Source: Candidatus Eremiobacteria bacterium (lineage in GTDB: Bacteria > Vulcanimicrobiota > Vulcanimicrobiia > Vulcanimicrobiales > Vulcanimicrobiaceae). Taken from it: a stretch of DNA of 64,000 bases. The number at the start of each line of letters is the position of its first letter. Within the stretch, counting starts at the first letter, position 1. Made by a program: the position numbers and the translations under genes. The stretch is taken from the NCBI GenBank assembly GCA_963737065.1, contig CAVTRC010000001.1:704001-768000 (forward strand). Direction: 5' to 3'. Positions 14,039-18,499 of the stretch are shown here, in pieces. The notes beneath the pieces were generated by a model. It worked only from the letters and a program-made list of their open reading frames with translations, was not told the origin of the DNA and did not search any database.

Positions 14039-14427
14039 AGCGCGCCCACGAGTTGAACTTCGAGCGGATGCCGGAACGGCATTTCGCTCAAATGCGTTAG
14101 TGGCGTAAATGCTAAGTGGTTTTGGTGACAGTCGATCAGCATTTCGATGCCGCGCTTCACGGAGCCCGATTCCTCGACGTACTTTGAGAGCTTCTTCGTG
14201 AAGTAGGTATGCGGATCGTGCAGAACTTTGGCGTAATAGGGGTCGTCGGTTAAGCCTGCAGCGCTAATGCCTTCTTTCGGAACGAGCCAGACGAACCACG
14301 GATCTTGATTGCGACGGTGGCCGATGAGCACGAGGGGTATTGCACGGGCCGAATCGAGATTCGGTAAGAAACTGCACATCGTGTACGCGTCGAATGAAAT
14401 CTCCGTCGGTTCGATCACCTGCTGCAT
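14035..14427 (-). CDS. Hypothetical protein
   Basis: 130 aa ORF with a GAGG RBS. Divergent from the ECF sigma gene. Confidence 0.65.
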   Translation of the reverse strand: MQQVIEPTEISFDAYTMCSFLPNLDSARAIPLVLIGHRRNQDPWFVWLVPKEGISAAGLTDDPYYAKVLHDPHTYFTKKLSKYVEESGSVKRGIEMLIDCHQNHLAFTPLTHLSEMPFRHPLEVQLVGAL

Positions 14428-14469
14428 CGGCGTTCCTCGTCTTCATAACGAATGTGTCCGTGTGCCGTA

Positions 14470-14507
14470 AACAAAAACCGCCGCGTCGCTCGCTGCGACC
14501 GGCGGTT
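14470..14507 (-). terminator. Intrinsic-terminator-like hairpin in the leader of the 14035..14427 gene
   Basis: Minus strand AACCGCCGGTCGC-AGCGA-GCGACGCGGCGGTT-TTTGTTT: a GC stem followed by a U tract. Confidence 0.45.
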
Positions 14508-14678
14508 CCTCGAGATGGTGCGTGCGGCACTTCATGTACCATAGCGCGGTGTTCTCGGACGCGCTCACAGCGCCCCTTCCCGCGGAAACATCCTGAGGGC
14601 CTGATGAGTAAAGCAGAAGCAAGAACTTTTAGCGCCGTGTGAAACCACGCGCGAGCCGGGAGTTGTTTGGTGTGAGGT

Positions 14679-15353
14679 ATGAGCGCGCTCGCACCATTGC
14701 TCCACACGGGAGTATTTGTGCCACCAGCGGTCCAGCAACCGCCGCAACCGCCGTCCGCCCGGAAGGCGGGCGAAGCGGTCCCCAGCGTCGACAATTTCAA
14801 CCGCATCGTCGACGATTATCAGCGGCGCCTCTATGGCTTTGCGCTGCGCATGACCGGCAATCGCGAAGATGCCGAGGAGATCGTGCAGGACGCCTTTGTC
14901 CGCGCCTACCGGGCGCTGGGAAAGATGTCGCTGGAGCAACGTAGCGAGCTGCGCTTGCAGCCATGGCTGTATACGATCACGCTGAACGTCACGCGCAATC
15001 GCCTGCGCAGCAAGCGTCCGGCAAATGTCGCACTCGATGCGCTTGCCGACCCCGACGCGCTGTTGCGCGAATCGAACGAAGGGCCGCCACGACCCGAGAC
15101 CATCGTCGAGCAGAACGCCGAAGTGGCACTGGTCGAAAAAGCGCTGCTTCAACTCCCGATGCACCTTCGTGCAGCGGCGACCTTACGATTCATCGAAGGA
15201 CGCAGCCATCCGGAGATCGCCGAAATTCTCCATCAACCGATTGGAACGGTGAAGTCCCACGTACATCGCGCGGTTCGCATTCTGCGCCGGATTCTCGGCC
15301 CACAGATTGGACGAATCGCACCCGAAGGAGCCGCTCTTCATGCGCTGTCGTGA
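14679..15353 (+). CDS. ECF RNA polymerase sigma-70 factor
   Basis: Region 2 DAEEIVQDAFVRAY...WLYTITLN and region 4 EIAEILHQPIGTVKSHVHRA. Confidence 0.92.
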   Translation: MSALAPLLHTGVFVPPAVQQPPQPPSARKAGEAVPSVDNFNRIVDDYQRRLYGFALRMTGNREDAEEIVQDAFVRAYRALGKMSLEQRSELRLQPWLYTITLNVTRNRLRSKRPANVALDALADPDALLRESNEGPPRPETIVEQNAEVALVEKALLQLPMHLRAAATLRFIEGRSHPEIAEILHQPIGTVKSHVHRAVRILRRILGPQIGRIAPEGAALHALS

Positions 15354-16074
15354 AGTCGAGGAATTATGGGACGAGGTACGCGCCGAATGCAGGGCCTCCG
15401 TCAAAGAAGCCGTCGACGCTCATCTGCGAGCGTGTCCGCCGTGCCAACACCTCTACGAAGAATATGAAGGCATCGCGTATTGCCTGGGGTGTTTGCCGCA
15501 ACCCGATGCGTCGTGCGACTTAGCGAAGAAAGTCGTCGAACATATCGCCGCGATTCGCCGTAAGGATCGCGTAACGCCGATCGTGCTCGCGTCGGTGCAA
15601 ACGCCGATCGGGCGGCTTTATGTGGGATCCAAAGAAGCGCGGATCGCCTATATCGGCGTCGACACCGGTGAGCGGTTTGAAGACGTGCGTTCGCGCATTG
15701 AAGCGCGCTTGCGCCGTCCTGTCATCGCCGGTGAAGCGCCGGCGTGGCTTCGCGAAACGCTGGATCAGTTCTTCAAGACGTGGCGCATCGACGACACGGT
15801 CGTCGACATCGACGATCTCACGCCGTTCGAACAGGCAGCGCTACGCGCCGCAGCAATGATCCCGCCGGGTGAAGTGCGTTCTTATTCGTGGGTTGCCTCG
15901 CAAATCGGCCGTCCGCGTGCCGCGCGCGCCGTCGGGCAGGTAATGGCGCGCAATCCGCTGCCGTTGCTCTTTCCATGTCATCGGGTCGTCGACGCGTCCG
16001 GCGACTTGCACGATTATGGATACGGCTTGGAGATGAAGGCTCGGCTCCTCAAACTGGAAGGCTACAGAGGTTAG
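15340..16074 (+). CDS. zf-HC2 (ZAS anti-sigma) domain fused to methylated-DNA--protein-cysteine methyltransferase (Ogt/MGMT)
   Basis: N-terminal MRCREV...HLRACPPC (HxxxCxxC). C-terminal IPPGEVRSY, AARAVG, NPLPLLFPCHRVV and KARLLKLEG. Start overlaps the end of the sigma gene. Confidence 0.9.
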   Translation: MRCREVEELWDEVRAECRASVKEAVDAHLRACPPCQHLYEEYEGIAYCLGCLPQPDASCDLAKKVVEHIAAIRRKDRVTPIVLASVQTPIGRLYVGSKEARIAYIGVDTGERFEDVRSRIEARLRRPVIAGEAPAWLRETLDQFFKTWRIDDTVVDIDDLTPFEQAALRAAAMIPPGEVRSYSWVASQIGRPRAARAVGQVMARNPLPLLFPCHRVVDASGDLHDYGYGLEMKARLLKLEGYRG

Positions 16075-16103
16075 GTCCGGTCACCTCGTAAAACACTACG
16101 AAG

Positions 16104-16823
16104 GTGGCAAAACGTGTCCTCATCGCCGGCTTCGAACCGTTTGGCGGCGAAAAAATCAACCCCGGTGAAATGGTCGCGCGTAGTCTGGAAGGGCGAACGC
16201 TAGCGGGCCGGCCACTCGCCGTGCGCATCATCCCGGTCGAGACCCGTAACGTTCGCGAGCGCTTCGAGCGCGCGCTACTCGAGACCGATCCCGATATCGC
16301 GATCGCGCTCTCTCAATGCGCCGGGCGTACGGCGCTCTCATTGGAGCGCGTGGCGGTGAACGTCCTGGATTTCGAGCACCCCGACAATGTCGGCGTCATG
16401 CGCAAAGCCGATGTCATTTCGCGCGGCGGTGCCGACGCGCGCCTTTCGAATCTGCCATTCGATCGGATCGTCGATGCATGGACCGCGCGCGGCGTTCCGG
16501 GGTACGTCTCGAACTCGGCCGGCACGTTTATCGGAAACCAGGCGCTTTACGAAATGCTCGGCTTGACGCAACATGCGACGCCGCCCGTCGCAAGCGGCGT
16601 GGTCCATTTGCCGTATCTTCCTGCGCAAGCAATTGCGGCCGGAAGCGAATCCAATCCCTCGATGACGCTCGAACTGATGAAGAAGGGCGTTGAAACGCTG
16701 ATTGAAACCATCGTGGCGTGGGTCGAACAGCGGACGCCTGACGCGCCGAACGTCCGCGAACCGGGCAAGTCTGCGACGTGGATCCCGCGCGGTGTACGCG
16801 GTGTAAAGGAAGTAGAACGCTGA
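16104..16823 (+). CDS. pcp: Pyroglutamyl-peptidase I (C15) homolog lacking the canonical catalytic Cys
   Basis: GFEPFGGEKINP, ERVAVN and HLPY are present. The SAGT(F/Y)xCN motif reads SAGTFIGN. Confidence 0.8.
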   Translation: MAKRVLIAGFEPFGGEKINPGEMVARSLEGRTLAGRPLAVRIIPVETRNVRERFERALLETDPDIAIALSQCAGRTALSLERVAVNVLDFEHPDNVGVMRKADVISRGGADARLSNLPFDRIVDAWTARGVPGYVSNSAGTFIGNQALYEMLGLTQHATPPVASGVVHLPYLPAQAIAAGSESNPSMTLELMKKGVETLIETIVAWVEQRTPDAPNVREPGKSATWIPRGVRGVKEVER

Positions 16824-18499
16824 GCGACCCACGCCTTTTGGCCATCCCCGATATTCATGGACACGCGAAGGGCGAGCACCGTGCTTTTGCCGAGGAGCGT
16901 CCCATCGCGTATTCACCGCGCATGCTCTTTCTGTGGTTTTATCACGCGTGCCGTCGCAACTCGCCGCGGTACATGATGGTGAGCGACCACGTGAACTATT
17001 TGACGTTTGAAGATCCCGGTGCGGTGCACACCGTGCGGCGCGCGCTCAAACTCGCGCATGCCGGCGACTTATACGGTGCGGCGGAAACAGCGGGCGTCGA
17101 CGTTGCGCATGCCGCGGTCGTAAGCGAAGGTTTGCGCAGGGGCATGCGCTTCTCCATTGGTGCGGAGGTCGACAACGATCCGCGTGCGAGACCCGATGCG
17201 CAGAATATCGTTGATGCAATGCGGCCGGACGGAATCATTCGCTCGGTCCATTTCTTGTCCGTCGATCACCCGGAAAAGGGCGCGGATTTCCAATGGCCCT
17301 ACGATAGCGCAGAGTTTGCCTTTTTGTGGGATCACGTGGGCGTCGAGCGCGCGTGGGAAGTTTATGTCGACCGCCTCGTCGACGATGTGGAGAAACTTCC
17401 CGGCCATGTCGTCGGACACTTCTATAAGCCGGCGATTTTGGGACACTGGCCCGACGACGTGAAGCTGCAGGCGTACGAGGATCGTATGCTCGATGCGGCG
17501 GCGGCGCGCGGCATGGCGGTGGAGATCAATACGCGTCCGCTCTACCGCGAATATTCTGACGAAGACCGCCAAAAGTACATCGACGTCAACAAGCGGCTGA
17601 TGCGCAAGGCGCAGCAAAAGGGTGTCGGCATCGCGATCGGTTCGGATGCGCACAGTCCGAAAGATCAGGCCGGTGCGTTCGAGGTCGTGCTGCAGATGCT
17701 CGACGAATGCGAGATCAACGAGATCGTGTTTCCCGTCAACGGACGGCTCGCGCGCGTTGTGCTGCGCGCAACGCGCGAGCATCTCGAAGCGCAACAACGC
17801 GCGCCCGAACCGTTGCAACCGGGAAGCAGCATCAGCGGTCTCGGGCGCGCGGAACTCGGGCTTCCCGAAGAACCGGAACGTCCGGCGGAAAAACCGCCGC
17901 GTGAACCGGCCGTTGCAAAGACCGCACGAGACACCGGTCCGAAGAAACGCGCGAGCAGTCCGGCACGCACCACGAAGAAGCCGGCCGCCGAAGAGCAGCC
18001 GGCAAAAGCAGCGACGTCGTCGTCGAAACGCAGCGCCGAATCAGCGGCATCCTCAGCGAAAGCGAAGGACACAAAAACCGCCGTAAGACCTGCCCCCGCG
18101 GTAAAGAGAAGCGCGGCTCCCGAGAAAAAGGCATCTGCCGAAAAGAAACCGGCAAAGAAATCACCGAACGCGTCAAAAGCCGCGCCCGCGAAAAAGGCGA
18201 ACGCAAAGAAAGCGAAGGCGCCCGCGAAAAAGACCGCTGCGAAGAAGGCTGTTCCGGCTCCAAAGAAAGCAACGGGCAAAAAAGCGGCGCCGAAGAAGCT
18301 TGCCGCGAAAAAACCCGTGCGACCAAAGAAGTCCCCGGCGAAGCCCGCCGCGAAGCCCGCGGCAAAGCCCGCCGCAAAAGCAGCTGCGAAGAAGGGCACC
18401 GCGAAGAAGCCTTCATCGACCGCAAAACCGGTGAAGAAAGGCTCGAAGCCGTCTAGCAAAGGGACGACGAAGAAAAAATCGACTAACAAGAGACGTTGA
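16820..18499 (+). CDS. PHP-domain (histidinol-phosphatase-like) hydrolase with long Lys/Ala/Pro-rich histone-H1-like C-terminal tail
   Basis: DIHGH, SDH, GAEVD, SVH, VGH, EINT and GSDAH motifs, then a tail of PAKK/AAKK repeats. Start uncertain (CTG 16820 after AAGGAAG, or TTG 16838). Confidence 0.82.
   Translation: MSDPRLLAIPDIHGHAKGEHRAFAEERPIAYSPRMLFLWFYHACRRNSPRYMMVSDHVNYLTFEDPGAVHTVRRALKLAHAGDLYGAAETAGVDVAHAAVVSEGLRRGMRFSIGAEVDNDPRARPDAQNIVDAMRPDGIIRSVHFLSVDHPEKGADFQWPYDSAEFAFLWDHVGVERAWEVYVDRLVDDVEKLPGHVVGHFYKPAILGHWPDDVKLQAYEDRMLDAAAARGMAVEINTRPLYREYSDEDRQKYIDVNKRLMRKAQQKGVGIAIGSDAHSPKDQAGAFEVVLQMLDECEINEIVFPVNGRLARVVLRATREHLEAQQRAPEPLQPGSSISGLGRAELGLPEEPERPAEKPPREPAVAKTARDTGPKKRASSPARTTKKPAAEEQPAKAATSSSKRSAESAASSAKAKDTKTAVRPAPAVKRSAAPEKKASAEKKPAKKSPNASKAAPAKKANAKKAKAPAKKTAAKKAVPAPKKATGKKAAPKKLAAKKPVRPKKSPAKPAAKPAAKPAAKAAAKKGTAKKPSSTAKPVKKGSKPSSKGTTKKKSTNKRR
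18338..18383 (+). repeat. Degenerate 12-bp tandem repeat encoding (AKPA)n
   Basis: gcgaagcccgcc gcgaagcccgcg gcaaagcccgcc gcaaaagca. Confidence 0.7.

Follow-up and report, generated by a model that had tools for sequence, protein, structure and literature searches.

The 64,000-nucleotide stretch of Candidatus Eremiobacteria bacterium DNA analysed here (the window; contig CAVTRC010000001.1, positions 704,001 to 768,000) encodes on its forward strand an extracytoplasmic function (ECF) sigma factor and, overlapping the end of its gene, a protein in which a predicted zinc-binding anti-sigma (ZAS) domain is fused to a complete O6-alkylguanine-DNA alkyltransferase (AGT) of the Ogt type. The pair is a real, conserved and unstudied variant of the sigma/anti-sigma theme, whose gene neighbourhood has been catalogued but whose logic is unrecognised in the literature searched. 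Computational analysis reveals the gene structure and domain identities, intact catalytic and zinc-ligand residues, a conserved pairing, a conserved promoter and a predicted interface between the two proteins. We propose, rating the chances as even, that they form a self-regulated module in which a soluble anti-sigma factor is at the same time a suicide DNA-repair enzyme, giving a resupply loop for that enzyme. Suicide enzymes pose a general resupply problem, and to our knowledge alkylation sensing in bacteria beyond the Ada-bearing model species is largely open. If the proposal is true, enzyme turnover would be a new type of input for ECF sigma factors and the module a compact, orthogonal damage-responsive switch.

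The sigma gene (14679-15353) encodes 224 amino acids and the fusion gene (15340-16074, with its ATG at 15340 and not 15341) encodes 244. The sigma stop codon (15351-15353) lies inside the fusion gene, as had been pointed out in a preliminary description of this DNA; the 14-nt ATG...TGA overlap (15340-15353) implies translational coupling of the two genes. In Pfam, the sigma protein matches Sigma70_r2 (1.1e-15) and Sigma70_r4_2 (3.4e-12) without region 3, the composition of an ECF type (group 4) factor. It scores 94.9 bits against TIGR02937 (cut-off 42.9), and none of the named equivalog models matches it at cut-off. The protein carries an N-terminal extension of about 36 residues (14679-14790) that opens with a conserved MSALAPLL. 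This start is absent or out of frame in 4 of 30 close genomes (L102, L104, L106 and L114), where the sigma protein must start about eight or more codons later.

How widely is this arrangement conserved? A full-length match to the fusion (query residue 1 to residues 240-244) was sought in 151 sampled genomes of the phylum Eremiobacterota and found in 73/73 genomes of three sets: the window's own genome, all 70 of its family and both of the sister family. The other 78 gave partial Ogt-domain matches or none to the fusion query; one of them, the unpublished genome G127, gave a partial match only, and no result rests on it. Fifty loci of the order were compared, the 30 best and 20 more divergent ones. 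The sigma gene lies directly upstream of the fusion in every one, and the adjacency that the preliminary description had expected among homologues is thus conserved, both here and in the other phyla described below. In all 30 of the best loci the two frames overlap by the same 14 nt; in the divergent set the genes overlap by 4-14 nt in 13 cases and are separated by 4-8 nt in seven. The start MRC(R/C)(E/D)(V/I) and the motif H-x3-C-x2-C are present in 30/30 of the best loci.

The N-terminal domain of the fusion comprises residues 1-78 (15340-15573), for which AlphaFold2 predicts helices at 3-14, 19-31, 33-50 and 61-75. Within its first 36 residues the protein reads MRC...H28-LRA-C32-PP-C35. The candidate zinc ligands are C3 (15346-15348), H28 (15421-15423), C32 (15433-15435) and C35 (15442-15444); their spacing, H-x3-C-x2-C with a further Cys/His ligand about 25 residues upstream, is of the ZAS type. 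All four are invariant in 50/50 orthologues and in 32/32 aligned sequences that include members of other phyla, and they would be expected to bind zinc. A profile of 19 orthologous 88-residue N-termini matched the anti-sigma factor RsiW (5wuq_C) with an E-value of 7.6e-5 and, weakly, RslA (3hug_B; E 0.11); these are two of only four matches at E<=10. The Cys-rich ZAS/zf-HC2 motif of the preliminary description is borne out by this match and by the ligand pattern itself, the Pfam model being a separate matter that is taken up below.

The structural predictions point in the same direction. The AlphaFold2 model of the fusion, made from a 32-row alignment, begins with four helices, after which come a beta/alpha domain and then a helical one (mean predicted local distance difference test, pLDDT, 90; predicted template modelling score 0.70); the isolated 88-residue domain is modelled with a pLDDT of 81. 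The four helices lead directly into the globular AGT fold, in keeping with the earlier remark that the protein lacks a transmembrane helix. When the domain was aligned with 48,161 chains by VIA-align, RsiW ranked first (Z 6.6, root-mean-square deviation 4.3, 69 aligned residues), PupR second (Z 6.2) and MucA third (Z 5.9), followed by RslA at rank 6 (Z 5.0), RskA at 14 and RseA at 26; the Z values (5-6.6) are middling, and this range may reflect a common helical arrangement. More telling than the Z values is that members of one functional class cluster among the top ranks. Because of the RsiW profile match and the anti-sigma domains at ranks 1-3, the N-terminal domain is probably an anti-sigma domain, a conclusion drawn from sequence profiles and models.

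Co-folding of the two proteins had been suggested in the preliminary description. Modelled together, with a separate alignment for each chain, residues 36-224 of the sigma factor and residues 1-88 of the fusion reached ipSAE scores of 0.79, 0.79 and 0.80, against 0.00 for the best of three controls; since SigW/RsiW-like complexes have already been solved and the predictor may be reproducing them, such a score speaks for likeness to them and not for binding by this particular copy. The runs share at least 69% of their contacts, with a partner pLDDT of at least 80. In the calibration, the mark was attained by 116 of the 157 complexes with solved structures and by two of the 215 mismatched pairs; these counts apply only roughly to this model because it used author-built alignments. 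On the sigma side, the predicted interface spans residues 37-78 in region 2 and 148-213 in region 4; the domain contributes residues 7-16, 41-57 and 61-73. The anti-sigma domain is thus predicted to sit between sigma regions 2 and 4.

Is the repair half of the protein intact? Residues 79-244 (15574-16074) form a two-domain AGT according to PF01035 and Foldseek. PF01035 matches residues 162-241 with 1.7e-28 and 98.7 bits (cut-off 27), and TIGR00589 scores 88.7 bits (cut-off 46.4). Starting at about residue 79 and extending over about 165 residues, Foldseek aligned the model with Mycobacterium tuberculosis OGT (4wxd; E 5.2e-12, template modelling score 0.74 on the target), the C-terminal domain of Escherichia coli Ada (1sfe) and human AGT. 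The acceptor motif P212-C213-H214-R215 (15973-15984) is invariant in 50/50 orthologues, as is RAVG, which contains R196; from these two motifs a complete Ogt domain had already been recognised. Invariance in 32/32 family members and 50/50 orthologues holds for Y182, R196, N205, C213, H214, Y226 and E240. In phmmer, query residues 167-243 align to residues 99-175 of human AGT (1eh6) with a constant offset of 68, and we take the seven residues to correspond to human Tyr114, Arg128, Asn137, Cys145, His146, Tyr158 and Glu172. Their presumed roles as arginine finger, tyrosine, asparagine hinge and glutamate of the active-site network are transferred from the human enzyme. By sequence, the AGT part is complete with its catalytic residues intact, and alkyl transfer is predicted.

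The third element is a promoter. An ECF-type promoter at 14640-14666 consists of a -35 element TGAAACC (14640-14646), a 15-nt spacer and a -10-like GTTGT (14662-14666). It was compared in 26 orthologous upstream regions anchored on the MS[AV]LA start, the four of 30 loci that lack this start being left out. The -35 sequence GTGAAACC, about 38 nt before the ATG, is invariant in 26/26, and GT(G/T)GT(C/T) is conserved in 26/26 at 15-16 nt beyond it, while the spacer varies. The possible promoter GAAAC-N16-GTT (14641-14664) of the preliminary description is thus part of a conserved element. TGAAACC-N15-GTKGT has a single match in the whole window of 64 kb, against 0.01 expected. A scan of 14300-16400 for sigma-70-type promoters found none, and the only terminator-like site is weak, lies on the minus strand inside a coding region and is no more than shuffled sequences give. 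Because the -10 element ends 12 nt before the sigma ATG, the transcript is inferred to be leaderless or to have a very short leader. This ATG appears to be in use, since changes in the first codons are synonymous. A second conserved box with the consensus AGGA.TTT, here AGAACTTT (14620-14632), precedes the -35 element by about 10-20 nt in orthologous loci and may be an operator or an UP-like element.

What would a module built from these parts do? We infer that the N-terminal zinc domain would insert between regions 2 and 4 of the sigma factor translated with it and so hold and inhibit that factor, and that the AGT would meanwhile scan DNA and move the alkyl group from O6-alkylguanine to Cys213, once. 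The alkylated, dead fusion would then be destabilised or degraded and the sigma factor freed; this release step is proposed because alkylated AGTs are known to be destabilised and degraded. The freed sigma factor would read TGAAACC-N15-GTTGT before its own operon, yielding fresh sigma factor and fresh repair enzyme. Newly made fusion would re-capture the sigma factor, the net result being a resupply loop for a consumable enzyme. That alkylation is the signal to the module is a view towards which we lean slightly.

The main rival is a thiol switch of the RsrA/SigR kind. Here the zinc site (C3/H28/C32/C35) or a second pair of cysteines would be oxidised, or directly alkylated by electrophiles, to release the sigma factor, and the AGT would be output (cargo) and not sensor. 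RsrA senses thiol-reactive compounds, and the invariant H-x3-C-x2-C is consistent with such a switch. The second pair belongs to a CxxC on helix 3 (15481-15492), with C48 in 46/50 and C51 in 42/50 orthologues; together with H68 on helix 4 (15541-15543; invariant in 50/50 orthologues) it falls inside the predicted sigma interface, the two cysteines being in the part (domain residues 44-57) predicted to contact sigma region 4, and the three residues could form a second metal site or a redox- or alkylation-sensitive one. The genome also lacks an Ada zinc domain, so that a zinc-thiolate acceptor could have moved to the fusion. However, C48 and C51 are specific to the order and absent from the relatives in other phyla, and many ZAS motifs are purely structural. 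The thiol switch also leaves unexplained why the partner is always an intact AGT and why relatives add an Ada-type methyl-acceptor domain. On balance it is unlikely, and alkylation of the AGT itself remains the preferred signal.

The relatives in other phyla bear on this preference. From the 150 best matches of a search made exhaustively through 1.84 billion representatives, 26 were chosen for long coverage or odd length and scanned with Pfam. A C-terminal Ada_Zn_binding domain (PF02805) is present in 13 of the 26, and zf-HC2 is found at E<=0.05 in 12, nine of them above cut-off (e.g., P0159 with 33.2 bits). A ZAS-Ogt-AdaZn architecture of about 300 residues therefore exists, its named members coming from Chloroflexota, Acidobacteriota and 'bacterium HR23'. 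Because 118 of the 120 closest database relatives are labelled PF01035 only, standard annotation misses the ZAS-Ogt fusion. One entry, P0263 (425 residues), joins sigma region 4 to ZAS-Ogt in a single frame; it is probably a frameshift or a gene-call artefact at the overlapping stop and start, and less probably a true sigma/anti-sigma fusion.

Gene order in other phyla was followed in the best 80 loci of at least 594 relatives, one genome per species, which were retrieved with a six-sequence alignment of the ZAS-Ogt-AdaZn-like protein; being selected by similarity, these loci do not tell how often Ogt genes in general are so arranged. In 61 of the 80, a homologue of the window's sigma factor is encoded. 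Most of the remaining 19 match through the Ogt C-domain only, and four of the 19 are no more than 300 nt from the end of a contig. Where the sigma match was mapped (51 loci among L005-L057), the Ogt gene starts between -37 and +86 nt from the sigma stop in 51/51. Fifteen of the 51 carry both the zinc motif and the AdaZn domain (Acidobacteriota/Thermoanaerobaculia, one labelled Dormibacteria), and a regular expression for the CxPTC Ada motif matched in 47. Thus, the combination of a zinc-motif protein, Ogt and ECF linkage, for which the preliminary description had proposed a search, is found in the order and in other phyla. Because the sigma-linked Ogt proteins of relatives bear a C-terminal Ada-type zinc domain, the fusion family appears tied to alkylation sensing. 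A pattern related to the window's promoter, G[AC]AACC-N12-18-GTGTT, precedes the sigma gene in 18 of 49 other-phylum loci (coding control 2/49, shuffle mean 0.11), and all 18 belong to the group without the zinc motif. Culturable relatives exist among Actinomycetota, namely in Nonomuraea and Actinomycetospora (L039, L046 and L049).

Have these sigma factors and AGTs evolved together? A quick maximum-likelihood tree (LG+G4) was built from 110 sigma cores. Of these, 62 are Ogt-linked, namely 13 of the 50 from Eremiobacterota plus 49 from other phyla; the other 48 are unlinked ECF factors (eight paralogues from the window's genome and 40 from five other-phylum genomes). The tree omits two truncated genes (L047 and L053) and the sigma matches of L058-L084. 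Of its 62 linked sigma factors, 57 form one group without an unlinked member, with a Shimodaira-Hasegawa-like approximate likelihood ratio test (SH-aLRT) value of only 83 for the deep branch that unites them. The linkage label changes twice on the tree, against a mean of 36 after shuffling. Because the linked sigma factors group together across phyla, the partnership of sigma factor and Ogt looks old, with weak deep support. Three loci come from metagenome-assembled genomes labelled Gammaproteobacteria (L027), Nitrosopolaris, an archaeon (L053), and Verrucomicrobiia (L057); as the sigma or fusion genes of these loci form tight clusters with those of Acidimicrobiia or Dormibacterota, the contigs may be mis-binned. 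In seven loci of the Dormibacterota type (L026, L032, L040, L041, L042, L055 and L057) a second ECF sigma-like gene is divergently transcribed from the opposite strand, some 0.5-1.1 kb before the linked sigma gene, and in the tree this second sigma forms a small clade near the linked ones (row L173).

A number of results weigh against the proposed module, among them the limits of the Z values, of the complex score and its calibration, and of the deep branch in this quick tree. With the window's sigma factor as query, the Ogt-linked sigma factor was the best match in three of the five other-phylum genomes, the second in one and the third in one. The Pfam zf-HC2 model (PF13490) reaches residues 7-36 of the fusion with E-values of 0.014-0.033 and 14.7-16 bits, below its cut-off of 22.2, and Foldseek with the isolated 88-residue domain returned no match at E<=0.001. 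The zinc motif is absent from 36 of the 51 loci (Chloroflexota, Dormibacterota and Actinomycetota, including Nonomuraea and Actinomycetospora). In these (L021-L057) some 35-40 residues precede the AGT fold and correspond in the alignment to the last part of helix 3 plus helix 4; this remnant may be a minimal helix that binds sigma region 2. An ATGA overlap of the sigma and Ogt genes is often seen among them. Because many relatives keep the pairing of sigma gene and Ogt-AdaZn but have lost the motif and the greater part of the domain, sequestration by a full anti-sigma domain cannot be the whole story for the family.

Could the N-terminal domain, then, be something other than an anti-sigma factor? 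The genes would in that case merely be co-transcribed, the sigma factor would drive Ogt, and the helical zinc domain would serve otherwise, for example in DNA or protein contacts during repair. The sub-threshold zf-HC2 match, the middling structural scores and the relatives that keep the pairing without the domain are compatible with this, as is the 2022 review in which a related group is listed without an anti-sigma factor (PMC8999054). By contrast, the RsiW profile match, the anti-sigma domains at fold ranks 1-3 of 48,161, the controlled complex model and the translational coupling speak against it, and we regard it as very improbable.

The search for a regulon also counts against the module. 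The strict promoter pattern has three matches in the 3.08-Mb genome, one of which is the operon itself, and none of the 40 matches to a loose pattern lies before an evident alkylation-repair gene. As to expression, no RNA data set was listed for this DNA, and the nine DNA runs listed contain only 0.05 of the sampled words. With no regulon or signal derived from the genome, the fusion might be a plain negative-feedback anti-sigma factor that senses nothing, the operon being under another signal (regulated proteolysis or another promoter) and the AGT tethering the complex to DNA or simply being co-delivered. The AGGA.TTT box (about 14620-14632) could be the operator of another regulator, and the conserved N-terminal extension of the sigma factor would also fit. 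For a passive passenger, however, the retention of the catalytic AGT residues in 50/50 orthologues and the linkage of sigma and Ogt genes across phyla would be unexpected, and the feedback explanation is improbable, if less so than that of a domain without anti-sigma function.

If the AGT is the sensor, the relatives allow a more specific and more tentative reading, possible but on the doubtful side: the fusion may be a stoichiometric lesion counter, in which each O6-alkylguanine repaired consumes one anti-sigma factor and frees one sigma factor, so that damage would be turned one-for-one into capacity for transcription initiation and into enzyme resupply. The ancestral form would have been a two-channel sensor on a sigma/anti-sigma chassis, with the AGT cysteine reading O6-alkylguanine and the Ada-type zinc site reading methylphosphotriesters. 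The order would have lost the Ada zinc domain, and the second channel may have been taken over by the zinc site of the anti-sigma domain or by the acquired C48/C51 pair. Such a counter would amount to an adaptive response unlike that of Ada, present in several mostly uncultured soil phyla.

How does the module relate to Ada in its own genome? The window's genome (G000; 3.08 Mb, 95.33% complete) contains four PF01035 loci. The three outside the window lie on contig C1 at about 460.7-461.6 kb (L002:871-1773), 649.8-650.3 kb (L001) and 2339.3-2339.8 kb (L004). They comprise an AraC-type helix-turn-helix (HTH) fused to Ogt, a stand-alone Ogt and a paralogue in which PAHR replaces PCHR. The first (HTH_18 7.4e-18, HTH_AraC 6.1e-12) is Ada-like without the zinc domain, and the PAHR protein is alkyltransferase-like and lacks the acceptor cysteine. 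PF02805 has no match in this 95.33%-complete genome, the fusion included, and Pfam finds no HTH domain in the fusion. The preliminary description had called the response Ada-independent. This is only half right: no Ada_Zn_binding domain was indeed found in the genome, but independence is not established because an AraC-HTH+Ogt paralogue is encoded there, and distant relatives of the fusion carry the Ada-type zinc domain. Of the remainder of that interpretation, the anti-sigma domain is upheld by profile, fold ranking and complex model, and the intact AGT, adjacency and promoter by conservation; release of the sigma factor on methylation of Cys213 or of a zinc-ligand cysteine, as suggested there, is a hypothesis.

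Downstream of the pair, the pyroglutamyl peptidase gene pcp (16104-16823) was considered as a further member of the unit and rejected. It is found in only 20 of the 50 loci, and the conserved unit is therefore the sigma and fusion pair alone. At 16778-18499, an open reading frame of 573 residues shows weak similarity to the PHP domain (20.9 bits, below cut-off); the final 230 or so residues of its product, with a very high content of Lys, Ala and Pro, resemble histone H1.

Has this architecture been described before, a question that the preliminary description had left open? The neighbourhood has, in part. For the group ECF122, 6-O-methylguanine DNA methyltransferases (MGMTs) are given as conserved neighbours (PMC8999054, citing Casas-Pastor 2021). 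This 2022 review, the only paper in the literature searched that connects ECF sigma factors with MGMT, places the group under 'unknown mechanism', together with others that lack an anti-sigma factor, and gives a Cellulomonas example (PMC8999054). Unlike ECF122 as listed there, the pair in the window, from Eremiobacterota, has an MGMT with a recognisable anti-sigma domain. The window's sigma factor falls in one clade with the Ogt-linked sigma factors of Actinomycetota, and the Actinomycetota members of that clade (Nonomuraea, Actinomycetospora and Rubrobacteraceae) probably belong to ECF122. ECF203 was also considered as an MGMT-linked group and set aside; the passage in question links it to TetR repressors and not to MGMT. 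The main text and preprint of Casas-Pastor 2021 contain neither 'methylguanine' nor 'ECF122', and the supplement may describe the MGMT of the group more fully. No experimental work on a sigma/ZAS-Ogt pair was found in the full-text literature, a scope that leaves out the Casas-Pastor 2021 supplement and Huang 2015.

Among characterised systems, the pair resembles those with class I zinc anti-sigma domains, RsiW/SigW of Bacillus subtilis (PDB 5WUQ), RslA/SigL (3HUG), RsrA/SigR and ChrR/RpoE, in which a four-helix N-terminal domain with the pattern C/H...H-x3-C-x2-C is encoded right after the ECF sigma factor and coupled to it. RsiW is the best match of the window's domain in both sequence profile and fold, and a sandwich between sigma regions 2 and 4 is likewise predicted. 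The differences lie at the C-terminus. The fusion ends in an alkyltransferase, whereas RsiW and RslA have a membrane anchor and an extracytoplasmic domain, RsrA has nothing and ChrR has a cupin. RsrA and ChrR are soluble like the fusion, and ChrR presumably shares with it a C-terminal globular domain that may act as a sensor. Unlike the signals of all four, the signal proposed for the fusion is irreversible self-alkylation.

In this last respect the closer parallel is E. coli Ada, a suicide alkyl acceptor that is coupled to the transcriptional control of its own gene, as is proposed for the fusion, and whose Cys4 zinc domain (PF02805) has counterparts in the relatives of the fusion. The outputs differ. 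Ada acts as an activator that binds DNA through its AraC HTH after methylation of the N-terminal zinc site, whereas the fusion has neither an HTH nor PF02805 and its output would be release of a sigma factor. The likeness to Ada is thus best described as a functional analogy and not as membership of the same family.

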